Origin: a virus
Lineage: Duplodnaviria; Heunggongvirae; Uroviricota; Caudoviricetes
IMG/VR virus record: IMGVR_UViG_2558860170_000007
DNA length: 48,271 bases
Direction: 5' to 3' (one strand)
Positions 31,267-47,283 of this stretch are shown in pieces (position 1 is the stretch's first letter; every line of letters starts with the position of its first letter). The notes under the pieces are model-generated. The model did no database searches. It was not told the DNA's origin and worked only from the letters and a program-made list of their open reading frames with translations. The position numbers and the translations under genes are program-made.

Positions 31267-32599
31267 ATTGGATTTGCCCCTATATTTCCAGACATCTGTT
31301 ATCACTTAACCCATTACAAGCCCGCTGCCGCAGATATTCCCGTGGCGAGCGATAACCCAGCGCACTATGCGGATGCCATTCGTTATAATGCTCGAACGCC
31401 TCTGCAAGGTTCTTTGCTGCCGTTAACCCGTCTGGTTTGGGCATGATACTGATGTAGTCACGCTTTATCGTTTTCACGAAGCTCTCTGCTATTCCGTTAC
31501 TCTCCGGACTCCGCACCGCCGTGTTCTTCGGTTCAAGTCCCAACATCCGGGCGAACTGGCGTGTTTCATTAGCCCGGTAGCATGAACCATTATCCGTCAG
31601 CCACTCCACTGGAGACGACGGAAGATCGTTGCCGAAGCGGCGTTCCACCGCTCCCAGCATGACGTCCTGTACTGTTTCACTGTTGAAGCCGCCGGTAGTC
31701 ACCGCCCAGTGCAGTGCCTCACGATCACAGCAGTCCAGCGCGAACGTGACACGCAGTCTCTCTCCGTTATCACAGCAGAACTCGAACCCGTCAGAGCACC
31801 ATCGCTGATTGCTTTCTTTCACGGCCACTCTGCCTGTATGTGCCCGTTTCGATGGCGGTACAGCAGGTTTTCGCTCAAGCAACAGCGCATTCTGGCGCAT
31901 GATCCGGTAAACACGTTTGGCATTGATCGCAGGCATACCATCAAGTTCTGCCTGTCTGCGAAGCAGCGCCCATACCCGACGATAACCATACGTGGGCAGC
32001 TCTCCGATAACATGGTGTATACGGAGAAGCACATCCGTATCATCAGTGTGACGACTGCGGCGGCCATCCATCCAGTCATCGGTTCGTCTGAGAATGACGT
32101 GCAACTGCGCACGCGACACCCGGAGACAACGGCTGACTAAGCTTACTCCCCATCCCCGGGCAATAAGGGCGCGTGCGCTATCCACTTTTTTGCCCGTCCA
32201 TATTCAACGGCTTCTTTGAGGAGTTCATTTTCCATCGTTTTCTTGCCGAGCAGGCGCTGGAGTTCTTTAATCTGCTTCATGGCGGCAGCAAGTTCAGAGG
32301 CAGGAACAACCTGTTCTCCGGCGGCGACAGCAGTAAGACTTCCTTCCTGGTATTGCTTACGCCAGAGAAATAACTGGCTGGCTGCTACACCATGTTGCCG
32401 GGCAACGAGGGAGACCGTCATCCCCGGTTCAAAGCTCTGCTGAACAATTGCGATCTTTTCCTGTGTGGTACGCCGTCTGCGTTTCTCCGGCCCTAAGACA
32501 TCAATCATCTGTACTCCAATGACTAGTCTAAAAACTAGTATTAAGACTATCACTTATTTAAGTGATACTGGTTGTCTGGAGATTCAGGGGGCCAGTCTA
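31267..32599 (-). mobile_element. IS2 (1333 bp), complete copy with 5-bp target duplication
   Basis: Ends TGGATTTGCCCCTATATTTCCAGACA (31267 onward) and TAGACTGGCCCCCTGAATCTCCAGACA (reverse complement ending at 32599); InsC-type OrfA (32143..32553) and InsD-type OrfB (31280..32185) on the minus strand; direct repeat ACGAT at 31262-31266 and 32600-32604. Confidence 0.9.
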
Positions 32600-33282: not shown

Positions 33283-33776
33283 CCCGGAAGCCCGGGGATC
33301 GTAATCTGCAGCTGGTTAGCCAGGGAGTTAATCTCAGCGACCAACACTGGCTTCGTATAGCGCCATGCTGCCAGCCCTTGTCCGCAGAAGCTCGCCATGT
33401 CTTTCTTCTGGTCAAATTCATGACATTTCATGTTGAGCTGCGCACTTAAGCTGTTGCGATGCTGAAGTTCTCCGGTGAAGTAGTCATCGAGGACTTTATA
33501 GGCCGCGTACTTGAACCCGGGGTTTAACCAAGCCGCATAATCGTAAGCAACAAACTTCCCGCCATATGTTCCACCGTGTACACCGCGCTCAGTAAAAACC
33601 ACAGATTCGTGGTTTTTCTCCAGCTCGGCTAAGAACTCTTTGGTCTGCTTGTTTCGCAGGTAGTGGTAAGGCGATTCAGATTCACTTTTACCACTGGCTT
33701 TCCACATATCAGTGAGGCAGATCATGCCATCTTCACCGATACGAATTGGTTGATTGAAGAGGGTTAATGATTTCAT
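33279..33776 (-). CDS. KilA-N domain-like phage protein (putative DNA-binding/antirepressor-like)
   Basis: 165 aa; N-terminal region (…IRIGEDGMICLTDMWKASGKSESESPYHYLRNKQTKEFLAEL…) resembles the KilA-N/APSES pattern. Assignment is from motif recall only. Confidence 0.5.
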   Translation of the reverse strand: MKSLTLFNQPIRIGEDGMICLTDMWKASGKSESESPYHYLRNKQTKEFLAELEKNHESVVFTERGVHGGTYGGKFVAYDYAAWLNPGFKYAAYKVLDDYFTGELQHRNSLSAQLNMKCHEFDQKKDMASFCGQGLAAWRYTKPVLVAEINSLANQLQITIPGLPG

Positions 33777-33977
33777 AGCGTGTACCTACTCTTTGAAATG
33801 AACCTTTGCCGCACAGGAAACCAGCCCACCGAGGCTCGCCAGCACTAACTGGTATCCTCAAAGGCCCATTCCAAAGGGGCAGGTTCGGTGTAAAAAACAT
33901 GCGTTGCGGTACGCATTTATTGCAAAAAGCCCCGCATCGCGAGGCTCATTAAATGGACTTTGTGATTTGCAAAAAAA

Positions 33978-34436
33978 TTATTTCAGGCATTGCGTCCTGA
34001 TGTATTCCTGCAGGTAGTTAACCTGCGCGGTTATCTTGTCGATTCCACTTCGGAGACGGTAATAATTGAGTTCAGCATCTGCTGTAAGTCCTGGGCTTTC
34101 TCCATCGCCCATGCCGCTGGCTCCGGTCGTTGACTTTGCACAGGTGGCGGCGACTTGCAGGCGCTTACGCCCAGCAGAAACATCAGCACGGAGACTTTCG
34201 ATAGTCGCGTTAGCATCAGCAAGCTCCTTTATGTATCTTGCGTCGAGTTCTGCTACATCACGTTGACGCTTCCGCATGTCAGCGATGGTGGCGTTCGCCT
34301 TCTCCAGTTCACTGGCCTTGTTATCGCGCTGCTCTTTGTAGGCGATTGCGTTATCACGGTAATGATTAACAGCCAATGACAGGCAGACGATGATGCAGAT
34401 AACCAGAGCGGAGATAATCGCGGTTACTCTGCTCAT
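33978..34436 (-). CDS. Rz: Spanin inner-membrane subunit Rz (i-spanin)
   Basis: [30 protein letters not shown]..., N-terminal TM helix plus coiled-coil periplasmic domain; start at the internal Met. Confidence 0.8.
34031..34222 (-). CDS. Rz1: Spanin outer-membrane lipoprotein Rz1 (o-spanin), embedded in Rz in the +1 frame
   Basis: 63-aa ORF wholly inside Rz; lipoprotein signal with Cys (…LLGVSAC…) and Pro-rich mature part. Confidence 0.7.
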
Positions 34437-34930
34437 TGTTTCCCCCACAAACAGACTTCACGCTCAATCTCACGGCGAGTCATCAGTCCTTTCCATTGAT
34501 TACCGCCAGCGTATGTCCAGCGCCGTAGCTGATCACATGCGCCTTTAATATCACCCTGGTTTATTTTGCGAAGAAGCGTCGATGTTCTGAAATTGCCAGC
34601 ACCCACGTTGTAGACGAACGAGTAAAGAGCGCAGCGCGTTGTTTCCGGTATATCGACTTTGATGTACGGGTTAATTTGTCTGGCGACAGTGGCAAGGTCT
34701 TTATTCAGGAGGGCTTTGCACTCTGCTTCGGTATACGTTTTACCGGGAATGATGTCTTTTCCTGTATGCCCGTAACATACAGTCCATACACCAACTATGT
34801 CTTTGTAAGGATTATGTCTCACACCTTCCAGACCATCGTTACCACCTGGGCCAGTGATTAACACAGATGCTATAGCAATAGCCCCGCCACCAATAGCAGC
34901 AGCAACAGCTTTTCGTAATGATGGAGGCAT
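34433..34930 (-). CDS. R: SAR endolysin (T4-lysozyme-like muramidase with N-terminal signal-anchor-release domain), phage-21 R-type
   Basis: 165 aa; weakly hydrophobic Gly/Ala-rich N-terminus [22 protein letters not shown] followed by a lysozyme catalytic region ([10 protein letters not shown]...VCYGHT). Confidence 0.85.
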
Positions 34931-35145
34931 TATCCACCTCTCGCAGCCTTGCGCTTATCTTCTTTAATCTTGAAATAAAGGTTTGTCAGGTACGTCAGCA
35001 GGCCAAATACCAGGCTACCCAGCACTCCAATTGCCGCCCACTGTGAGGGCGTGACTTTATCTAGCAGCTGTAAAAACCAGTACCCGGCACTACCTGCTGA
35101 GGTGCCATAGGCGACACCCGTTGTTAACTTATCCATGGATTTCAT
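34930..35145 (-). CDS. S: Class II holin (pinholin, phage-21 S-type) with dual-start motif
   Basis: 71 aa, [58 protein letters not shown]...; two TM helices; Met1 and Met4 give the antiholin/holin dual start; stop overlaps the R start. Confidence 0.85.
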
Positions 35146-35335
35146 AACCCCACCTCGCAGACAAAGCGGGTGTAAATTGAGGGAATACTACGAAACGTAA
35201 CAGACTCGGAGTCAGTGAATAACTCAGGTATTGGGTTATCAGCTAATATCGAGACTCAAAAAATGGAAAAACCCGCTCGACGGCGGGTTTAAGCTGTGTG
35301 ACGAAGTAACCACTCTTAACAGCATAACCAATTTT

Positions 35336-36103
35336 GGTGATGCTGCCAACTTACTGATTTAGTGTATGATGGTGTTTTTGAGGTGCTCCAGTGGCTTCTG
35401 TTTCTATCAGCTGTCCCTCCTGTTCAGCTACTGACGGGGTGGTGCGTAACGGCAAAAGCACTGCCGGACATCAGCGCTATCTCTGCTCTCACTGCCGTAA
35501 AACATGGCAACTGCAGTTCACTTACACCGCTTCTCAACCCGGTACGCACCAGAAAATCATTGATATGGCCATGAATGGCGTTGGATGCCGGGCAACTGCA
35601 CGCATTATGGGCGTTGGCCTCAACACGATTTTACGTCACTTAAAAAACTCAGGCCGCAGTCGGTAACCTCGCGCATACAGCCGGGCAGTGACGTCATCGT
35701 CTGCGCGGAAATGGACGAACAGTGGGGCTATGTCGGGGCTAAATCGCGCCAGCGCTGGCTGTTTTACGCGTATGACAGTCTCCGGAAGACGGTTGTTGCG
35801 CACGTATTCGGTGAACGCACTATGGCGACGCTGGGGCGTCTTATGAGCCTGCTGTCACCCTTTGACGTGGTGATATGGATGACGGATGGCTGGCCGCTGT
35901 ATGAATCCCGCCTGAAGGGAAAGCTGCACGTAATCAGCAAGCGATATACGCAGCGAATTGAGCGGCATAACCTGAATCTGAGGCAGCACCTGGCACGGCT
36001 GGGACGGAAGTCGCTGTCGTTCTCAAAATCGGTGGAGCTGCATGACAAAGTCATCGGGCATTATCTGAACATAAAACACTATCAATAAGTTGGAGTCATT
36101 ACC
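35336..36103 (+). mobile_element. IS1 (768 bp), complete copy with 8-bp target duplication
   Basis: IRL GGTGATGCTGCC at 35336, IRR ...GTCATTACC ending 36103; insA 35391..35666 and insB 35585..36088; direct repeat CCAATTTT at 35328-35335 and 36104-36111. Confidence 0.95.
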
Positions 36104-36493
36104 CCAATTTTTTACGTACGTAAACCACTAAATGATATTTGCGAGAATGCTACCGAGTATTGAAAACACCACTACAAATACATAAGCAAATCCCAACAAA
36201 TAACCAACAAATAATTTCCAGTGTTATTTTTAGCCGGTTTAAATTGAACCTTCAAATTATAGAGCACTTATAAATAACAGCCGTTAATATAAATTGGCTA
36301 ATAGATTTATTTTTATTCAGCCAAGAGCCATGAATAGGATTCGATAGAAAAAAGTTCAGATAAAAATAGAGATCTACTTCACAAATCAAACGAGAAACCA
36401 AAACTTACATCTTGAAATAATCACATTGATTAGATGAATATTTATCGCGCAGTGACATCATTTTTTAATAATAGTTCAAAAAAAGGGCTCACG

Positions 36494-37576
36494 ATGAAAA
36501 AATTAACAGTGGCAATTTCTGCTGTAGCTGCATCAGTACTGATGGCGATGTCTGCTCAGGCAGCTGAAATTTATAATAAAGACAGTAACAAGCTGGATCT
36601 GTACGGGAAAGTTAATGCTAAGCACTACTTCTCCTCTAATGATGCAGATGATGGTGATACTACTTATGCCCGTCTTGGCTTCAAAGGTGAAACCCAAATC
36701 AACGATCAACTGACTGGTTTCGGTCAGTGGGAATATGAATTCAAAGGCAACCGCGCTGAATCTCAAGGTTCCTCCAAAGATAAAACCCGTCTTGCCTTCG
36801 CTGGCCTGAAATTCGGTGACTACGGCTCCATCGATTACGGCCGTAACTACGGTGTAGCATACGACATCGGTGCGTGGACTGACGTCCTGCCAGAATTCGG
36901 TGGTGACACTTGGACTCAAACAGATGTGTTCATGACTGGTCGCACCACTGGTGTTGCAACTTATCGTAACAACGACTTCTTTGGTCTGGTTGATGGTCTG
37001 AACTTTGCTGCTCAGTATCAGGGTAAAAATGACCGCACTGACGTAACTGAAGCTAATGGTGATGGTTTCGGTTTCTCCACTACTTATGAGTATGAAGGAT
37101 TCGGTGTAGGTGCAACCTATGCTAAATCTGACCGCACTAATAATCAGGTTATCTACGGTAACAACAGCCTGAATGCATCTGGTCAAAATGCTGAAGTATG
37201 GGCAGCTGGTCTGAAATATGATGCGAACAACATCTATCTGGCTACCACCTATTCTGAAACCCAGAACATGACTGTTTTTGGTAATAACCATATTGCCAAC
37301 AAAGCACAAAACTTCGAAGTAGTTGCACAATATCAGTTCGACTTCGGTCTGCGTCCGTCCGTTGCTTACCTGCAATCTAAAGGAAAAGACTTGGGTGCGT
37401 GGGGTGATCAGGACCTGGTTGAATATATTGATGTAGGTGCAACCTATTACTTCAACAAAAATATGTCCACTTTTGTTGATTACAAAATCAACCTGATTGA
37501 TAAGAGCGATTTCACGAAAGCATCTGGCGTTGCTACCGATGATATCGTTGCTGTAGGTATGGTTTACCAGTTCTAA
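36494..37576 (+). CDS. nmpC: Prophage-encoded general porin NmpC/OmpD-type (OmpC/OmpF family), apparently intact
   Basis: Signal peptide [23 protein letters not shown] then [16 protein letters not shown]...; C-terminal ...VGMVYQF. Start taken at MKKLTV (ORF track starts 20 codons upstream). Confidence 0.85.
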
Positions 37577-37704
37577 TTTGATTACTAAAAGATATGTTGC
37601 GGGAGGCTTTGCCTCCCCAACATATAAGTGGCTCCCTCAAGCCACTTCCTTTAGGAGCACAACCTTGCTTCTAACTATATAAACCTTCTGTTATATATTA
37701 CCCT

Positions 37705-37740
37705 TTATTTTTGGGGGCGTTGCAACGCCCCATTTTTAAT
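37705..37740. terminator. Hairpin terminator between nmpC and Q (bidirectional appearance)
   Basis: TTTTTGGGGGCGTTGCAACGCCCCATTTTT: perfect GC-rich stem at 37714-37731 with T-runs on both sides. Confidence 0.45.
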
Positions 37741-37764
37741 AATTTTTAGTAAACAATTGGCATA

Positions 37765-38148
37765 TTAATTAGAGTTATTAACAACGATATCCATCTCTAA
37801 CCGGATATCTAATGCCATTAACATCCCTTCAATTATGCCCTCAGCCTTCTGTAACCTTTTCCCGATATAACCATCAGAGCAGCAATGCTTACCTGCCAGT
37901 GACATGAATGTCATACCGACTACATAATAATCTACTAATAAATCGTGCAAATCGCTGTTGTTCTTTTTCAGACGGGCCATGCACCCGCAAATAATCATCG
38001 CGTCATCGTCACAACATTGCGGGCGAGATTTTACTTTTGAAGTAATTAATCCCTTAAAACCGGCGGCAATGGACGACCAGGTCACATCTTCATGATTATT
38101 AGCCGCCCACGCTCCCCAACGCTCAAGAACCATCTGAATATCACGCAT
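37765..38148 (-). CDS. Q: Late-gene antiterminator Q (phage-21/DLP12 QuuD-type)
   Basis: [60 protein letters not shown]...; Cys-rich zinc-binding region. Confidence 0.8.
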
Positions 38149-38233
38149 CAACTTACTCCACAAAAATCAGACCAGAACGCCAATTACAAGCAAAAATCAA
38201 CAAAACAGTATTAGTTGATTGTTATCTCTGACT

Positions 38234-38374
38234 TCATACTCCTGCTCCTGTCAGGGTTTTGGCGTAATTCTTCAGTATTCGGTAATCGGTCAAAACAGAA
38301 CCGGGGAAACGATATAAGCGCAGATGCCCCCAGCGGTGGCGAAGAAGTTCTGCCATATAAAACTCAAACATCAT
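38234..38374 (-). CDS. ylcG: YlcG-like small protein (DUF3927)
   Basis: 46-aa [49 protein letters not shown]; its start overlaps the rusA stop (ATGA); not in the supplied ORF track because it is under 60 aa. Confidence 0.5.
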
Positions 38375-38733
38375 TCATTCCCCATTTCGGTGATGGTCAG
38401 TTCCAGCCTCCCACCTTTGGTAACAGGCATCTTCACAACGCGGTAATCAACGACCTGAGCATCATCCAGCCAGAAACCTGCTTTGGTGAGTGCGTCAAAA
38501 GCGGCTTTTTGCAGATTATCCAGGTCACGGCGACGGCGATCCGGCATGTGGCACTCAATACGGATTTTCACTGGCATAGCCAGGCCGATATCCAGCATTG
38601 CGTTTTTAATGATTCGGGTGACGTTATCGCGGTATGCCTGCCCTTCTGCGCTGATGTGTGTGCGCCCGCGATTATGGCGGTAATAGCGGTTATTGCTCGG
38701 AGGCCAGGGTAATGTGATGCTGTAGGTATTCAC
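38371..38733 (-). CDS. rusA: Holliday junction resolvase RusA
   Basis: 120 aa, [38 protein letters not shown]...[26 protein letters not shown]... Confidence 0.85.
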
Positions 38734-39020
38734 GCCTTAATAACCCCCTCTTTCAGCCAGATAACCTGCGTTCTCGCCATACCTTCCAGCGCGCATTCTT
38801 TTGCATACTCAGCATCGACAAAATATGTGCGGCGGTCGATTTCGTCGTGACAGGCAGAACATGCAATGGTGGCAATCAGGTCTGGCGGTTTGATACCGGT
38901 ACCGCACAATCCAGCCAGCCGGATATGTGCCAGTACTGACGTTTCAGGATTGCCATTACATACGCCAGGGATTCTTACCTGGCATTCCCGACCACGCGCT
39001 GCTTTTCTCAAATCAGCCAT
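38730..39020 (-). CDS. ybcO: YbcO-like protein (DUF1364, putative nuclease of the nin region)
   Basis: [62 protein letters not shown]...; Cys/His-rich. Confidence 0.7.
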
Positions 39021-39183
39021 GATTCCTCCTTGCTGCCAGTCGCAACCATTTTTTATCAACCAGGCTAGCGGTATATCCGAGCAGTGTTGGTATTTCGGAT
39101 GGCTTCAGCTCAGGCTTACGCTTACGACGATTTGATACTCTGTAGATGTGCCCGTTCATGACACGAATAAGCGGTGTAGCCAT
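39013..39183 (-). CDS. ninE: NinE-like small protein
   Basis: 56-aa [59 protein letters not shown]; start overlaps the ybcN stop (TAATG) and stop lies 3 nt after the ybcO ATG; not in the ORF track (under 60 aa). Confidence 0.6.
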   Translation of the reverse strand: MATPLIRVMNGHIYRVSNRRKRKPELKPSEIPTLLGYTASLVDKKWLRLAARRNHG

Positions 39184-39638
39184 TACGCCTCCTGCTTATC
39201 GCGCAGCTGCTGGTATTCACAGCTCTGCGGAATTGTCAGGTGGCAGCCGATATTCATCGCCCAGGCTTCGACTTTGCACAGGAAGATGTACATCTCGCCG
39301 GTTTCCAGCTCTGACGTATGGCGGAGGGATTGGACGGTGGTGACCTCGCCGGACACGACATCTACACGGTCTTTGCTTTCGTAGCCGAGATAGGTGTGCT
39401 TCATCGCGTCTTTGACCCACTCAGGCGTAGCGAAGGTCTTGCCGCGGGCGATGAGATATTCGCTGATCTCCGTGTACCACATGTGGCTGAGCGCGTTCTG
39501 CGACAGGCTGCGCTTCTCGCGCCACGGCTTAACCTGCAGGCGTAAGCATTGCCCGGCATCCAGCAATGGCTGAATCTGCTGGCCGATGGCCGCGAAGTTA
39601 CCGCGATGGAGTTTGATGCCGTCTACTGGCAGAGTCAT
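39183..39638 (-). CDS. ybcN: YbcN/NinB-like nin-region protein (DUF1367-type)
   Basis: 151 aa, MTLPVDGIKLHRGNFAAIGQQIQPLLDAGQCLRLQVKPWREKRSLSQNALSHMWYTEISEYL... Confidence 0.65.
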   Translation of the reverse strand: MTLPVDGIKLHRGNFAAIGQQIQPLLDAGQCLRLQVKPWREKRSLSQNALSHMWYTEISEYLIARGKTFATPEWVKDAMKHTYLGYESKDRVDVVSGEVTTVQSLRHTSELETGEMYIFLCKVEAWAMNIGCHLTIPQSCEYQQLRDKQEA

Positions 39639-39902
39639 ACGGCCTCCCTAACGGAAACCGCAGAATGCAGAAAATCGCAGGTGCATTTCTGCATCTGTGA
39701 CAAGGTGATGAGTTCAGATTGTGGTCGCATTTAAGTCCCCTTAAATGCGCAGAAGTCACCGGAGTTGTTCAGGCTCCGATGAGAGGATTATGGCGGATTG
39801 ATTACGATAAATCAAAACTATCTTGAAGCCAAAACAGTGATCTTCGCTTTAAAAACCTTGTATACTTTCACCTAATCACAGCCAGAACTATGGATCTAAC
39901 CA

Positions 39903-40280
39903 ATGACCAACAAAGAAAACAAAGATAAATATATTAACAAGTTCAAGAAAGAGCTTTCAAAATATATACAACCAACTGCTGGAGTGGACATTCAATTATT
40001 TAACTCTAAGGATGGTGGTGGTGTAATTAAAGCCACTTTGAATAGAAGTGGAAAAAGAAAATCATCTATTGCTGGTAATTTTACTAAATTAGGTGAGGCA
40101 ATTACCTCGAGTGGGCAGAGGGTTTTTGGTGGTGATCTATCAAATGTGAATTTTTACGGAACAAATACGATTTTTGATGGAGATACAATATTTTTAATTA
40201 AATCACCTGATTCAGAGGAGTGGTCATCACAAAAAGCTTCCAAAGACGTAGAGGGCATCGTATTTGGAGGGAAAAAATGA
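39903..40280 (+). CDS. Uncharacterised small soluble protein, first gene of an AT-rich two-gene cassette
   Basis: 125 aa; Lys-rich N-terminus, Gly-rich motifs (SKDGGGV, VFGGD, IFDGD, VFGGKK); no TM segment; TATACT -10-like hexamer at 39861-39866 upstream; no family recognised. Confidence 0.6.
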   Translation: MTNKENKDKYINKFKKELSKYIQPTAGVDIQLFNSKDGGGVIKATLNRSGKRKSSIAGNFTKLGEAITSSGQRVFGGDLSNVNFYGTNTIFDGDTIFLIKSPDSEEWSSQKASKDVEGIVFGGKK

Positions 40281-40705
40281 TTAACATTACTACTAAGGAT
40301 GGCACTCAAGTCAGTGGTGAAGTAAGAGATCTAGTAATTCTTCTTGAAACTGATGGAAAAACGGTGTCTGATTATTTGCAGCCAATCCCTCCCAAAAAAG
40401 ATACACACTGGAGCATGATTTTCATTCCGGTAGCAATTTATATACTACTTAATCTTGTATACATTATTGCTCACCCATTATTTCCTGAAAAATATCTAAA
40501 AACATCAACATCTATATTTCTATTCATTTCCTTCATATTAAGTGCAATAGTAGCATATTTTGTTTTCCATAAGCATAAATCTGCCACTCTATCCATATGC
40601 AGCTTAGTGTTCTTAGTGTTAATTGTAGGTGCTAACGTAGGGTTTATCAGTTACAGCGACCTAACACAAAAAGCGACGCAAAAATTAGATAGTTTGTCTA
40701 AATAA
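40277..40705 (+). CDS. Uncharacterised small membrane protein (about 3 TM helices), second gene of the cassette
   Basis: 142 aa from the ATG at 40277 (GGAGGG Shine-Dalgarno 5 nt upstream; ATGA overlap with the stop of the upstream gene); about 45-aa soluble N-terminus then three hydrophobic helices. The ORF track gives an upstream alternative start at 40220. Confidence 0.6.
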   Translation: MINITTKDGTQVSGEVRDLVILLETDGKTVSDYLQPIPPKKDTHWSMIFIPVAIYILLNLVYIIAHPLFPEKYLKTSTSIFLFISFILSAIVAYFVFHKHKSATLSICSLVFLVLIVGANVGFISYSDLTQKATQKLDSLSK

Positions 40706-41144
40706 TTATGTTGCCATGCGAAGTATGCATGGCTGCATGTCTGCCTTCCATTTAAAATGGGCTAAGACCTATAACCCTAAATATTATTCTTTATTATCTT
40801 CTTTACCACTTCGGTGATGCTGCCAACTTACTGATTTAGTGTATGATGGTGTTTTTGAGGTGCTCCAGTGGCTTCTGTTTCTATCAGCTGTCCCTCCTGT
40901 TCAGCTACTGACGGGGTGGTGCGTAACGGCAAAAGCACTGCCGGACATCAGCGCTATCTCTGCTCTCACTGCCGTAAAACATGGCAACTGCAGTTCACTT
41001 ACACCGCTTCTCAACCCGGTACGCACCAGAAAATCATTGATATTGTCAGCGCCAGTGATATAAGACGGTAATTCGCCATTTGGATTGTCCGCTCCACCCA
41101 ACATGTTGTTTCCTTAAGGTTCTCACACCAGAAAGGACATCAAC

Positions 41145-43114
<1,970 letters not shown>

Positions 43115-43714
43115 CGAAAGTATTTAGCGGGCATGAAAATGGCAAATAACGGTCAAACATCGTGGCGTTGACAATATGGCCATGAATGGCGTTGGATGCC
43201 GGGCAACTGCACGCATTATGGGCGTTGGCCTCAACACGATTTTACGTCACTTAAAAAACTCAGGCCGCAGTCGGTAACCTCGCGCATACAGCCGGGCAGT
43301 GACGTCATCGTCTGCGCGGAAATGGACGAACAGTGGGGCTATGTCGGGGCTAAATCGCGCCAGCGCTGGCTGTTTTACGCGTATGACAGTCTCCGGAAGA
43401 CGGTTGTTGCGCACGTATTCGGTGAACGCACTATGGCGACGCTGGGGCGTCTTATGAGCCTGCTGTCACCCTTTGACGTGGTGATATGGATGACGGATGG
43501 CTGGCCGCTGTATGAATCCCGCCTGAAGGGAAAGCTGCACGTAATCAGCAAGCGATATACGCAGCGAATTGAGCGGCATAACCTGAATCTGAGGCAGCAC
43601 CTGACACGGCTGGGACGGAAGTCGCTGTCGTTCTCAAAATCGGTGGAGCTGCATGACAAAGTCATCGGGCATTATCTGAACATAAAACACTATCAATAAG
43701 TTGGAGTCATTACC

Positions 43715-43776
43715 CGCTTGCAGTAACGGCGAAAGGGGCAATGACAGCGCTGCCATGTCGACAAGAACTGGAATAG
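43715..43776 (+). pseudogene. cscK: Fructokinase CscK, 3'-terminal fragment (last 20 codons)
   Basis: Frame ...ALAVTAKGAMTALPCRQELE-stop directly after the IS1 right end; begins with the 9-bp sequence CGCTTGCAG that is also found (inverted) beside the IS1 at 48052-48060. Confidence 0.6.
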
Positions 43777-43847
43777 TGAGAAGTAAACGGCGAAGTCGCT
43801 CTTATCTCTAAATAGGACGTGAATTTTTTAACGACAGGTAGGTAATT

Positions 43848-45095
43848 ATGGCACTGAATATTCCATTCAGAAATGCGTACTATCGTTTTGCATCCAGTTA
43901 CTCATTTCTCTTTTTTATTTCCTGGTCGCTGTGGTGGTCGTTATACGCTATTTGGCTGAAAGGACATCTAGGATTGACAGGGACGGAATTAGGTACACTT
44001 TATTCGGTCAACCAGTTTACCAGCATTCTATTTATGATGTTCTACGGCATCGTTCAGGATAAACTCGGTCTGAAGAAACCGCTCATCTGGTGTATGAGTT
44101 TCATCCTGGTCTTGACCGGACCGTTTATGATTTACGTTTATGAACCGTTACTGCAAAGCAATTTTTCTGTAGGTCTAATTCTGGGAGCGCTCTTTTTTGG
44201 CCTGGGGTATCTGGCGGGATGCGGTTTGCTTGACAGCTTCACCGAAAAAATGGCGCGAAATTTTCATTTCGAATATGGAACAGCGCGCGCCTGGGGATCT
44301 TTTGGCTATGCTATTGGCGCGTTCTTTGCCGGCATATTTTTTAGTATCAGTCCCCATATCAACTTCTGGTTGGTCTCGCTATTTGGCGCTGTATTTATGA
44401 TGATCAACATGTGTTTTAAAGATAAGGATCACCAGTGCGTAGCGGCGGATGCGGGAGGGGTAAAAAAAGAGGATTTTATCGCAGTTTTCAAGGATCGAAA
44501 CTTCTGGGTTTTCGTCATATTTATTGTGGGGACGTGGTCTTTCTATAACATTTTTGATCAACAACTTTTTCCTGTCTTTTATGCAGGTTTATTCGAATCA
44601 CACGATGTAGGAACGCGCCTGTATGGTTATCTCAACTCATTCCAGGTGGTACTCGAAGCGCTATGCATGGCGATTATTCCTTTCTTTGTGAATCGGGTAG
44701 GGCCAAAAAATGCATTACTTATCGGTGTTGTGATTATGGCGTTGCGTATCCTTTCCTGCGCGCTGTTCGTTAACCCCTGGATTATTTCATTAGTGAAGCT
44801 GTTACATGCCATTGAGGTTCCACTTTGTGTCATATCCGTCTTCAAATACAGCGTGGCAAATTTTGATAAGCGCCTGTCGTCGACGATCTTTCTGATTGGT
44901 TTTCAAATTGCCAGTTCGCTTGGGATTGTGCTGCTTTCAACGCCGACTGGGATACTCTTTGACCACGCAGGCTACCAGACAGTTTTCTTCGCAATTTCGG
45001 GTATTGTCTGCCTAATGTTGCTATTTGGCATTTTCTTCCTGAGTAAAAAACGCGAGCAAATAGTTATGGAAACGCCTGTACCTTCAGCAATATAG
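43848..45095 (+). CDS. cscB: Sucrose:H+ symporter CscB (LacY-family oligosaccharide/H+ symporter)
   Basis: 415 aa, 12 predicted TM helices, MALNIPFRNAYYRFASSYSFLFFISWSLWWSLYAIWLKGHLGLTG... recalled as CscB; it is separated from the 5' part of cscK and from the csc promoter. Confidence 0.85.
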   Translation: MALNIPFRNAYYRFASSYSFLFFISWSLWWSLYAIWLKGHLGLTGTELGTLYSVNQFTSILFMMFYGIVQDKLGLKKPLIWCMSFILVLTGPFMIYVYEPLLQSNFSVGLILGALFFGLGYLAGCGLLDSFTEKMARNFHFEYGTARAWGSFGYAIGAFFAGIFFSISPHINFWLVSLFGAVFMMINMCFKDKDHQCVAADAGGVKKEDFIAVFKDRNFWVFVIFIVGTWSFYNIFDQQLFPVFYAGLFESHDVGTRLYGYLNSFQVVLEALCMAIIPFFVNRVGPKNALLIGVVIMALRILSCALFVNPWIISLVKLLHAIEVPLCVISVFKYSVANFDKRLSSTIFLIGFQIASSLGIVLLSTPTGILFDHAGYQTVFFAISGIVCLMLLFGIFFLSKKREQIVMETPVPSAI

Positions 45096-45535
45096 ACGTA
45101 AACTTTTCCGGTTGTTGTCGATATCTCCCTATCCCTCAACCGGAAAATAATAATACTAAAGTGCTTAGCCCGGCTAATAATCACCTAATCCAAACGCCTC
45201 ATTCATGTTCTGGTACAGTCGCTCAAATGTACTTCAGATGCGCGGTTCGCTGATTTCCAGGACATTGTCGTCATTCAGCGACCTGTCCCGTGTATCACGG
45301 TCCTGCGAATTCATCAAGGAATGCATTGCGGAGTGAAGTATCGAGTCACGCCATATTTCGCTATCAGGATTCTGTGTGATGGTTACATCGCCCGGCCCAG
45401 GGCTGTTTAGTCATCAGCGCTTTCTGACAGTGCTGAGATTTCAACCTGTTGCAGTAAAAATGAGTAGATATAAGGCAAGTGTGCTGCCAAACCCATCTTT
45501 TACGGGGTGAAGGTAGATTTCGTTTGAAGGGTATC

Positions 45536-45550
45536 TGGTGTCCCCTGCAG
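45536..45550 (-). repeat. att-like copy of the argW 3' end (15 nt, CTGCAGGGGACACCA)
   Basis: Exact 15-nt match to the last 15 nt of argW (2635-2649) in inverted orientation; partial similarity extends a few more bases. Confidence 0.55.
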
Positions 45551-45623
45551 ACATCTACTTGAGGCGGCAGGGGATTGATTGGAATGCTGTTTTTTAGATT
45601 TGAAAAATATTTTACCCGCTATT

Positions 45624-45824
45624 TTACCCATTGGCGCGGCTTAAGAGCTTATTTTTGAATTCACAATGGTCACGATATAACCATCTTGCTCGTCCGTGGA
45701 TAACTTTGGCTTTAGGCAGGTCGCCGGACTTAATCCGGTCATAGATGAAGGTCTTACCGAAGCCAGTATCAGCCATGATGAATTTCAAATCAACCAGTGA
45801 ATCAGGTTGTAGTTCGTGTTGCAT
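45624..45824 (-). CDS. alpA: AlpA-family small DNA-binding protein (prophage regulatory/excisionase-like HTH)
   Basis: 66-aa ORF; ...GFGKTFIYDRIKSGDLPKAKVIHGRARWLYRDHCEF... resembles the AlpA/Xis HTH family; the start may be the internal Met at 45779. Confidence 0.6.
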   Translation of the reverse strand: MQHELQPDSLVDLKFIMADTGFGKTFIYDRIKSGDLPKAKVIHGRARWLYRDHCEFKNKLLSRANG

Positions 45825-45843
45825 GAGTGCTATCTCCGAATAT

Positions 45844-45858
45844 GGAATCGAACCTGCA
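45844..45858 (-). repeat. Second argW-like fragment (T-arm region, GCAGGTTCGATTCC)
   Basis: Reverse complement reads ...CTGATTTGCAGGTTCGATTCC, matching the argW T-arm (2617-2634) apart from a few upstream mismatches; lies immediately upstream of the alpA-like start. Confidence 0.45.
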
Positions 45859-45946
45859 AATCAGGCAATAAAAAGCCGCATTGATGCAGCAATGGTAGGT
45901 CTGGATATCTTGAGAAATGAACAGGCCTCATCGAGTGTGAGGCGGG

Positions 45947-46291
45947 TTAGTCCTTGCGTAGCTCGCTGATTCTTCTGTAAGTCTCTGGTGCTTTGTTCCC
46001 GTACGTCTTCATTTCAGACTTCAACAGAGCAACGAGTGAATCCCATTCGTTGAGGATTCCTTTGAATGCCGGAACGCGCTTTGCAACCTTGTCGAATGAA
46101 TCTCTGATTTCTGGAATCTGCTCAACAAGTGCAACGCATCGCCGAAAGTCTGCTGCGTCATGGGGAGCGCCGAAGTGATGACCATAGATATTCTTTTTCA
46201 GGCCACATGCGATTGAGGCAAGAGTTGCGCTACTGATGCCGACATCGCCAGTTGATTGCCATTTCAAAACCTTCATAGCCAAATCTGACAT
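45947..46291 (-). CDS. Hypothetical protein (114 aa), no family recognised
   Basis: ORF with plausible start; divergently arranged with the downstream membrane protein gene. Confidence 0.4.
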   Translation of the reverse strand: MSDLAMKVLKWQSTGDVGISSATLASIACGLKKNIYGHHFGAPHDAADFRRCVALVEQIPEIRDSFDKVAKRVPAFKGILNEWDSLVALLKSEMKTYGNKAPETYRRISELRKD

Positions 46292-46532
46292 TTCTTGTCT
46301 CCATAAAACAAAACTCGCCGTAGCGAGCTCAGATAAAAGAAATCCCCGTCAGTGCGAGGATGCTGTTCATTGCTGCTATACACTTTTTTGCTCTCAACGT
46401 AAGCGGTAGCCCATTCTGTTGGGTTGGTCAGTTGCTTTTAGGAAATGCTCTTTACCCCTTAAACGTCGGCTGAAAGAGCTAAAATCCATGCAAAAAATTT
46501 ACGCAATTTTGTGTATTATTGTGCAGTAAGTA

Positions 46533-47135
46533 ATGAGCTATTTTCTGTGCAAAAAATGGATGATAAATTTGTCCGGGGCAGGAAAAATTTTATGGGCGCT
46601 AAACATGAAAAAAGATTCGTATCCTTATTTGATTTGCATGACAGTTTCAGGGCTGATCTTTATTTTCCTTTTCTTCTGGTGGCGGGCAGATATCTACAGG
46701 GTCACGTTTCTTAATCAGAGTATATCCCACTATTACATTCTGTTTAGCATGGGAATAGCTTTTCTGTTATCTCTGTTTTGGGTTAAGAAGGGGATAGTAA
46801 AACAAAGCGGCTGGAAGAGTCTGTCAGCATACCTTAAGGTTTATGCAGGGATATGCATATTTTCTGGATTTTTTCTGATTATACCCCTTACAACACTAAC
46901 TTATTTTTTGCCTGGAGAGACATCGTCTTATGTTGCACCGTATCGGTATACTTCCGGTAGTTCAAAAAGTTGTTCTGGAGCTGAGGTGGATGACCCCGAT
47001 CTACATGAGAATATTCGCATTTGCTATCCGTATGGCAATTATGAGTACGATAATATTATCTATGTTGAAAAGAAAATTAATACATTAGGTGCGGTAGTGA
47101 CATATGCACAGACCGCGCGTGATGATACTGAATGA
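46533..47135 (+). CDS. Hypothetical membrane protein (about 4 N-terminal TM helices plus Cys/Tyr-rich C-terminal domain)
   Basis: 200-aa AT-rich ORF; start uncertain (alternatives at 46560 and 46605); C-terminal region contains ...CSGAEVDDPDLHENIRICYPYGNYEYDNIIYVEKK... Confidence 0.45.
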   Translation: MSYFLCKKWMINLSGAGKILWALNMKKDSYPYLICMTVSGLIFIFLFFWWRADIYRVTFLNQSISHYYILFSMGIAFLLSLFWVKKGIVKQSGWKSLSAYLKVYAGICIFSGFFLIIPLTTLTYFLPGETSSYVAPYRYTSGSSKSCSGAEVDDPDLHENIRICYPYGNYEYDNIIYVEKKINTLGAVVTYAQTARDDTE

Positions 47136-47283
47136 GATAGTATATAGCGGGCAAGTTTTAGTTAATTTATCGAGGTAATATAATTTACCTCGACTCGTTT
47201 ATTCTGGTATGAATATTTCGCTTTACGATCGATTTTTATCTGATGATATCATGCGGTTTTCATATACTGACTTACTGTCTTTT

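Follow-up and report, generated by a model that had tools for sequence, protein, structure and literature searches.

The window analysed here is the whole 48,271-nucleotide stretch of IMG/VR virus record IMGVR_UViG_2558860170_000007 (Caudoviricetes). Between approximately 6.9 and 40.8 kb it contained a lambdoid prophage whose genes are read on the minus strand; in it, the porin gene nmpC lay between the late-gene antiterminator gene Q and the holin gene essD, on the strand opposite to both. One copy of the insertion sequence (IS) IS1 occupied positions 35336-36103 (+), in the AT-rich spacer between nmpC and essD. The IS1, nmpC and the structured 3' untranslated region (UTR) that follows nmpC, a counterpart of the RNA IpeX, were each intact; the IS1 was present as a simple insertion, and the module around it was conserved in related loci. 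Coordinates of the individual features are collected in Table 1.

The nmpC reading frame contained neither a frameshift nor an internal stop; it opened with a signal peptide and ended in ...YQF. Residues 24-360 of NmpC aligned end to end with the solved chains of OmpC, OmpF, PhoE and OmpK36/37 (E-values down to 2e-137), and the NCBIfam OmpC-subfamily score was 518 (cut-off 484). The signal peptide, complete barrel and C-terminal Phe of a full-length porin were all present. The original prediction had described a full-length porin gene from signal peptide to ...YQF and had named a frameshift or premature stop as a finding that would overturn it; the gene passed that check. A start at 36434 was rejected as a merely mechanical extension of the open reading frame (ORF), all relatives being annotated from the ATG at 36494. 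In the public assembly collection, 17,488 indexed blocks held the identical protein; outside laboratory strains, nmpC is commonly intact.

NmpC is predicted to be expressed and to form an outer-membrane pore, for which S. flexneri and E. coli B provide indirect evidence. In S. flexneri M90T, nmpC is transcribed in an FNR-dependent manner and induced anaerobically, and patients make antibodies to S. flexneri NmpC. The window NmpC was 90% identical (329/365) to the reconstructed 365-aa NmpC of K-12 and five residues shorter. The changes and indels were clustered in three segments: residues ~181-232, residues 262-266, and the C-terminal 60 residues.

The IS1 was exactly 768 bp long, with the ends GGTGATGCTGCC and GGAGTCATTACC and detectable terminal inverted repeats, which agrees with the length (~768 bp) and imperfect ~23-bp terminal inverted repeats that define IS1. 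Both insA and the insB' frame were intact, as was the A6C motif at which a -1 frameshift joins the two in IS1, and both frames matched the NCBIfam model NF033558 (transpos_IS1). Against IS1A from E. coli B and MB22 the element showed 99.6% identity; two further IS1 copies of the window that are complete matched it at 100%. It was flanked by direct repeats of CCAATTTT. The duplication was 8 bp, the ninth base being mismatched (8-9 bp is expected for IS1). At the left junction CAGCATAACCAATTTT ran into GGTGATGCTGCC, and at the right junction GGAGTCATTACC ran into CCAATTTTTTACG.

An empty site of 240 bp was rebuilt by deleting the IS1 and one copy of the repeat, and was compared with 5,426 complete E. 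coli genomes. At least nine of these genomes carried it with 100% identity, and 2,356 of the 5,426 covered it to at least 80%. Because the empty site exists exactly in other genomes, the repeat is not a chance one, which proves a simple transposition into known sequence with an 8-bp duplication. The coordinates, the repeats and the empty site thus bear out the earlier claim that an IS1 with an 8-bp target duplication separates the holin gene from nmpC.

The same IS1 configuration was present in CP049179.1 (GCA_013147205.1, 4.88 Mb), which was 99.96% identical over window positions 33494-40577. Accessions adjacent to it (CP049164, CP049174, CP049176 and CP049186) are cited in papers as Shigella sonnei isolates; together with the missing junction in E. 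coli described next, this makes an S. sonnei-like source probable. Among the 5,426 complete E. coli genomes the left IS1 junction was absent; the single apparent junction match was LR-24, in which the IS1 sits within the porin gene. Sixty E. coli genomes covered the 2.6-kb query, which does not amount to the same arrangement, as the IS1 was elsewhere in every genome checked. An exact junction scan of one genome per species also gave no match, an outcome to be expected if that set counts Shigella under E. coli. Since the 5,426 complete E. coli genomes lack it, the insertion junction might be useful for marking a lineage.

Immediately downstream of the nmpC stop codon, 174 nt folded into a stack of hairpins (minimum free energy -64.6 kcal/mol, z = -8.1) that ended in a terminator, a hairpin with a T-run found by the terminator scan. 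Column identity in this 3' UTR was 96% across five alleles including K-12, with ORFs that differed by up to 10%, and most of the variation fell within hairpin loops. The terminator stem (37714-37731) was kept in all loci compared, and its loop varied: TTGCAAC, TCTCAAC, CTTCAAC, and TTTCCAC. IpeX is a 167-nt RNA of DLP12/PA-2, and the 3' UTR of the porin transcript lowers host OmpC. Castillo-Keller et al. 2006 are said to have placed IpeX between the nmpC stop codon and its terminator. An untranslated stretch of ~170 nt, running from the stop codon to a Rho-independent terminator and conserved with DLP12, agrees with this description of IpeX, which is drawn from the literature. A search of Rfam returned no family for the nmpC 3' UTR. 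Position and structure suggest that 37577-37750 corresponds to IpeX and is intact here; the lowering of OmpC/OmpF is known from the literature. The high conservation of the spacer between Q and nmpC was considered as a sign of a promoter, but the IpeX 3' UTR, encoded on the opposite strand, accounts for it better.

The spacer between the IS1 and nmpC (36104-36493) was 30% GC, compared with 51% for the whole window and 53% for the IS1. The end of the IS1 lay 390 bp from the nmpC ATG, as the original prediction had estimated. The 285 bp upstream of the ATG (to -285) were identical to K-12. In K-12, deletion of -199 to -1 relative to the ATG abolishes the activity of PnmpC; the transcription start is a G, mapped by rapid amplification of cDNA 5' ends; and the promoter is regulated by CRP, OmpR, IHF, MprA and RyhB (PMC11677980). 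A CRP scan and a reading of the sequence against the K-12 report gave a putative promoter zone comprising a CRP-like site, candidate -35 and -10 hexamers, and a G as start. Among 16 distinct versions of the spacer, 36402-36521 was near-invariant and 36192-36341 was variable. The CRP-like site and the near-invariant promoter block at 36402-36491 were ~265-340 bp from the IS1, which lay ~343 bp upstream of the putative start and outside the conserved promoter/CRP block. At the right end of the IS1, the promoter scan found no promoter-like site reading toward nmpC (+ strand).

These distances point to an ordinary insertion into an AT-rich spacer that left nmpC and its known promoter untouched, and this is probably the correct account. 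In this account, an intact porin module (promoter, nmpC, IpeX-like 3' UTR and terminator) lies between Q and the lysis cassette of a decaying prophage, and one copy of IS1 has transposed into the nmpC-holin spacer and made the 8-bp duplication. The nmpC module should retain its native regulation, which in K-12 is that by the five regulators named above, because the IS1 is 390 bp from the ATG, ~343 bp from the start and outside the promoter/CRP block.

The original prediction had further proposed that the IS1 might modulate the expression of nmpC. It did not mention that the oppositely oriented lysis/late unit runs across the IS1, that the spacer is an H-NS-bound hot spot for IS elements, that the prophage is defective and full of IS copies, or that the IpeX 3' UTR belongs to the nmpC unit. 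The anatomy does not favour this, the promoter being identical to that of K-12 and no outward promoter facing nmpC. A direct effect of the IS1 on nmpC is unlikely; an indirect one may arise through H-NS silencing or weak read-through from insAB'. The K-12 nmpC/essD spacer is one of 78 promoter islands (576129_354, nmpC(-)/essD(+)), and in all chromatin immunoprecipitation data sets RNA polymerase and H-NS bind the K-12 promoter islands (PMC3661553). The IS1 and nmpC were co-oriented, and the terminator scan found no terminator-like site between them on the + strand. By an offset of +777 between two MG1655 coordinate versions, the IS1 target presumably falls inside promoter island 576129_354.

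An IS1 of 53% GC, placed in a 30% GC spacer that is H-NS-bound in K-12, might alter the level of nmpC/IpeX, either by splitting a silencing domain, as at bgl, or by insAB' read-through into a gene that is transcribable in Shigella, as the S. flexneri findings indicate. Such an effect is improbable here. The IS1 is outside the -199 to -1 segment needed for PnmpC, the conserved promoter/CRP block is intact, and neither IS1 end supplies an outward -35 with a spaced -10 facing nmpC. Insertions known to activate bgl fall within ~125 bp of the promoter. The promoter of IS1 itself is weak and auto-repressed (for context, PMC12428005).

On the other side of the IS1, the lysis cassette began with essD and continued with the lysozyme and Rz genes. 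The same gene order, with the Pfam families Phage_holin_2_1, Phage_lysozyme and Phage_lysis, was recorded in CP049179.1 and other loci, and the 190 bp upstream of essD were 100% identical to K-12 DLP12. Between the IS1 and essD, the terminator scan found an intrinsic terminator-like hairpin (fold -12 kcal/mol, z = -3.0) in a block, 35116-35335, that was nearly invariant in the 16 spacer versions. The only Rfam match, a sub-threshold one to the Trp_leader family, covered 35263-35354 (-) with 28.8 bits (gathering threshold 41; E = 0.01); it was judged spurious, a chance hairpin resemblance to the trp attenuator at the IS1 left end and terminator.

The Q protein was QuuD-like and belongs to the Q21/Q933W family (bioRxiv 10.1101/651190). 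Pfam PF06530 was recorded for the same gene in CP049179.1 and other loci, and the NCBIfam scan returned no model for Q. PhiR34_1 and PhiR68_2, both viable phages, encode a Q 100% identical to it; for Stx phages the identity was ~78-81%. With Q at 38148-37765 and the late genes beginning at 35145, any Q-loaded polymerase that starts upstream of 35336 must cross the IS1.

The regulatory reporter for S-R-Rz in K-12 is described as -121 to +650, and the lysis operon is controlled by RpoE, Q and Hha (PMC7918800 and its Table S1). The 5' end of its forward primer mapped to window position 36566, which places +1 at approximately 36445 on the minus strand. A sigma-E-type motif, GAACT-N16-TCACT (36477-36451, -), was read six nt upstream of ~36445 and fits the cited RpoE control. 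A peak in RpoS-holoenzyme SELEX (systematic evolution of ligands by exponential enrichment) lies near the nmpC 5' end. With this start, the IS1 lay at about +343 of the lysis leader, upstream of the terminator (35290-35269) and essD. The putative nmpC (+) and lysis (-) promoters overlapped face to face at 36412-36478, with starts a few bases apart, in a block that was invariant in 16 distinct sequences; transcription of the porin gene and of the lysis genes may interfere with each other.

Whichever way it is oriented, IS1 classically exerts Rho-mediated polarity, an effect that antitermination overrides. The lysis/late transcript would have to cross the 768 bp of the IS1 before reaching the terminator and essD. 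As the IS1 lies in the leftward lysis/late path, a cis effect is likelier on the lysis genes than on nmpC. If there is one, it would most likely be Rho-dependent polarity that lowers basal lysis-gene expression, and a Q-modified polymerase would probably override it. IS1 polarity would matter little in a prophage without an early region. An IS2-like (IS3-family) element at ~31269-32599 (-), with inverted ends at 31277-31309 and 32558-32590, lay between the lysis cassette and the gene for the small terminase subunit, a second obstacle to late transcription.

Three candidates could be the late promoter pR' at which Q is loaded: (A) the start near 36445, (B) a TTTACG-N16-TATGCT site at the IS1 target, and (C) the DNA just after Q. 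A consensus scan for a Q-dependent late promoter gave no convincing site, and when pR' regions from 1H12 and Stx2 II were aligned locally, the result did not exceed that of shuffled controls. Among the phages inspected with a Q at least 95% identical there was no porin-free comparator; all carry nmpC.

Candidate B spans the target in the empty site and would have been split by the IS1, so that lysis and morphogenesis became uncoupled from Q. The IS1 would replace the -35 with its own TTGGCA at 17 bp and remove any Q-binding element upstream, leaving a leader of ~25 nt and then the terminator at 35290-35269. A hybrid promoter-like site of this kind, TTGGCA-17-TATGCT, was present at the IS1 left end (minus strand, 35349-35321; 9/12 match), reading toward essD. 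It was the only hybrid site found, and it points away from nmpC, with the terminator ~24 nt further on. The near-invariance of 35116-35335 also speaks for candidate B, as does a comparison with Stx2 phage II: of the whole spacer, only the 83 bp around target and terminator had a homologue in the DNA directly downstream of its Q gene, with TATCAT in the same register. However, the hexamers are weak, and the promoter scan gave 2 promoter-like sites in the region compared with 5.9 in shuffles, so that a single match carries no statistical weight. Stx2 phage II has an annotated putative pR' and terminator downstream of the 83-bp block, phage 1H12 (Q 87.5% identical) has a second terminator type right after Q, and the K-12 reporter places the lysis regulatory start near 36445. 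A split late promoter is improbable.

The homologous 83 bp lie directly after Q in Stx2 phage II (L015 2922-3003), include a terminator hairpin, and were 77% identical to window 36125-35267 (-). The DNA neighbouring this block was unrelated. This suggests that the nmpC moron was inserted between Q and the 83-bp terminator block.

Several points weigh against the account of an ordinary insertion with native nmpC regulation. The promoter and regulator positions come from K-12 papers, and all expression effects at the window locus would likewise be imported from K-12 or deduced. The deletion of -199 to -1 speaks to necessity, not sufficiency, and nmpC could also be influenced by an H-NS/IHF architecture further upstream. 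At bgl, H-NS silencing is known to be relieved when IS1 or IS5 inserts upstream. The lysis +1 near 36445 rests on a primer position and a quoted coordinate range. One of the three pR' candidates would be split by the IS1. The host lineage, probably Shigella sonnei-like, is read from the accession neighbourhood and the density of IS1.

A bolder reading is that the IS1, which splits the promoter island and sits in the lysis/late leader, could de-silence nmpC-IpeX and also dampen expression of the toxic lysis genes; a prophage moron would then have been domesticated in a single step in Shigella sonnei. If true, a new major porin would appear while OmpC/OmpF went down, with altered antibiotic permeability, phage receptors and antigenicity. 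This chain of events is quite improbable.

Independent IS insertions were found at seven other positions in the same Q-nmpC-essD module: IS5 at the nmpC 3' end in K-12, and IS1 in the nmpC ORF of E. coli B strains, in nmpC of LR-24, at the nmpC 5' end of JNEC-KY204, between nmpC and Q in DXMF6-3R, and in Q of both MB22 and NMBU-W13E19. H-NS-bound, AT-rich prophage DNA is a documented transposon trap (PMC11335895). The Q-nmpC-essD spacer is an IS hot spot, and an insertion there needs no selective explanation because H-NS-bound AT-rich DNA attracts insertion sequences.

Table 1. Features of the prophage region and IS1 copies in the window (a dot marks features without strand).
Feature	Position	Strand	Details and basis
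nmpC, intact prophage general porin gene	36494-37576	+	360 aa including a 23-aa signal peptide
Structured nmpC 3' UTR (IpeX counterpart)	37577-37750	+	fold, terminator scan, conservation
nmpC/IpeX terminator hairpin, followed by a T-run	37714-37731	+	terminator scan
Putative nmpC promoter zone	36368-36449	+	CRP scan, sequence reading, fit to K-12 report
CRP-like site AGAGATCTACTTCACA	36368-36383	+	CRP scan; centred at -71.5 from putative start
Candidate -35, TTGAAA	36412-36417	+	read from sequence
Candidate -10, GAATAT	36436-36441	+	read from sequence
Putative nmpC start, a G	36447 or 36449	+	read from sequence; fits the K-12 G start
Target-site duplication, left copy CCAATTTT	35328-35335	.	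direct-repeat detection
Target-site duplication, right copy CCAATTTT	36104-36111	.	direct-repeat detection
insA	35391-35666	+	91 aa, intact ORF
insB' frame	open to 36088	+	intact ORF
A6C frameshift motif AAAAAAC	35642-35648	+	motif for the -1 frameshift between insA and insB'
Leftward lysis promoter as placed in K-12	36445-36478	-	overlaps nmpC 5' UTR; position imported from K-12
Intrinsic terminator-like hairpin	35255-35290	-	stem 35290-35269, then UUUUUCCAUUUUUU; between IS1 and essD
essD, holin gene, first of lysis cassette	34930-35145	-	71 aa; ORF
Lysozyme gene	34433-34930	-	ORF
Rz gene	33978-34448	-	ORF
Q, late-gene antiterminator	37765-38148	-	127 aa; QuuD-like, Q21/Q933W family
IS1 copy	5430-6197	-	no target duplication
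IS1 copy, disrupted by IS21-like element	40813..43714	+	no target duplication
IS1 copy	47284-48051	-	no target duplication

The prophage carried early-side genes (Q and the nin-region genes rusA, ybcO and ninE) and apparently full-length structural genes (terminase, portal, capsid, tape measure, J and tail fibres). Its early region ended at 40813, and no repressor, replication or integrase genes of this prophage were present in the window. The prophage is defective because the early region is cut off at 40813, leaving it without repressor, replication genes or an integrase of its own. At the left end of the window were mlaA, yfdC, tRNA-Arg(CCT) and an intS-like integrase gene. The tail-fibre end abutted an IS1 beside this argW tRNA-Arg(CCT)/intS-like region (mlaA-yfdC-argW-intS, window 1-6200), and the lambdoid prophage therefore lacks its own attachment-site end in the window.

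At least six IS copies were present in the prophage region: four IS1, one IS2-like and one IS21-like. Among the four IS1 copies in the window, only that at 35336-36103 retained a target duplication; the others showed signs of IS1-mediated rearrangement. The IS21-family element (~41043-43100) lay inside the third IS1 and carried istA (41145-42317) and istB (42314-43114). The flanks CGCTTGCAG (43715-43723) and CTGCAAGCG (48052-48060) were reverse complements, a signature suggesting that 43715-47283 was inverted by recombination between inverted IS1 copies. The inverted segment carried a gene for a LacY-family permease (43848-45095).

Two IS1 copies in direct orientation bracketed 36104-40812, and IS1-mediated deletions are frequent in E. 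coli B. The copy at 35336 and the co-oriented copy at 40813..43714 might form a Tn9-like unit with nmpC, ipeX, Q and the nin genes, either a mobile cassette or a substrate for deletion and amplification. This is very improbable. The outer flanks shared no duplication (CCAATTTT on the left, CGCTTGCAG on the right), a test that largely refutes a composite transposition as a past event. The left IS1 had its own complete 8-bp duplication, which indicates that it inserted alone, and native flanks lay on either side of it; the bracketed genes were in standard prophage order, and the right copy was disrupted by the IS21-like element.

Expression of NmpC and IpeX in Shigella sonnei, if it occurs, would affect beta-lactam permeability, phage receptor availability and surface antigenicity. 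It is the intact gene with its native promoter that opens this possibility, rather than the IS1, and the importance of the insertion is limited. All of the components are known: IS1, the NmpC/Lc porin, IpeX, a Q21/Q933W-type Q, and a DLP12-type lysis cassette. A public genome already contains exactly this insertion, and for K-12 and B the disruption of nmpC by IS elements is textbook knowledge. The locus illustrates cleanly how the AT-rich, H-NS-bound prophage DNA surrounding nmpC has been struck repeatedly by insertion sequences across lineages.

The closest known systems were other nmpC-bearing prophages and phages, together with bgl-type IS activation of silent operons and IS1 hybrid promoters. 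In bgl-type activation, IS1 or IS5 also enters AT-rich, H-NS-bound DNA upstream of a gene often called quiescent, and the window, too, has a hybrid promoter-like site, at the IS1 left end. However, the known bgl insertions lie within ~125 bp of the promoter, whereas the window IS1 is ~343 bp away and its hybrid site points away from nmpC.

K-12 DLP12 (qsr') shares with the window the order rusA-ylcG-Q, nmpC on the opposite strand, and essD-rrrD-rzpD, together with a near-identical nmpC upstream region and the nmpC 3' UTR. In MG1655, an IS5 after codon 346 interrupts nmpC and parts it from its 3' UTR, in agreement with the statement in the original prediction that the DLP12 gene is inactivated by an IS. 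In the window, by contrast, nmpC is intact, and the element is an IS1 that lies upstream of it in the spacer. E. coli B (REL606, BL21) carries nmpC::IS1, with the same IS type, the same orientation relative to nmpC, and the same prophage module. There, however, the IS1 is within the coding sequence and silences the porin, and excision of 777 bp restores nmpC expression (bioRxiv 10.64898/2026.08.19.745717); the window coding sequence is untouched, and its duplication is 8 bp compared with the 9 bp implied by that excision. Unlike K-12 and B, the window genome keeps the whole porin-plus-IpeX module.

The Lc porin/IpeX unit of PA-2 is likened to that of the window from the literature. The viable phages PhiR34_1, PhiR68_2, ev243 and Perceval carry, as the window does, an intact porin gene and structured 3' UTR between Q and S, and PhiR34_1 and PhiR68_2 were 98.9% identical over window 36104-38170. 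These four are complete phages with no IS in the spacer, whereas the window prophage has lost its early region and gained an IS1 between its porin gene and its lysis cassette.

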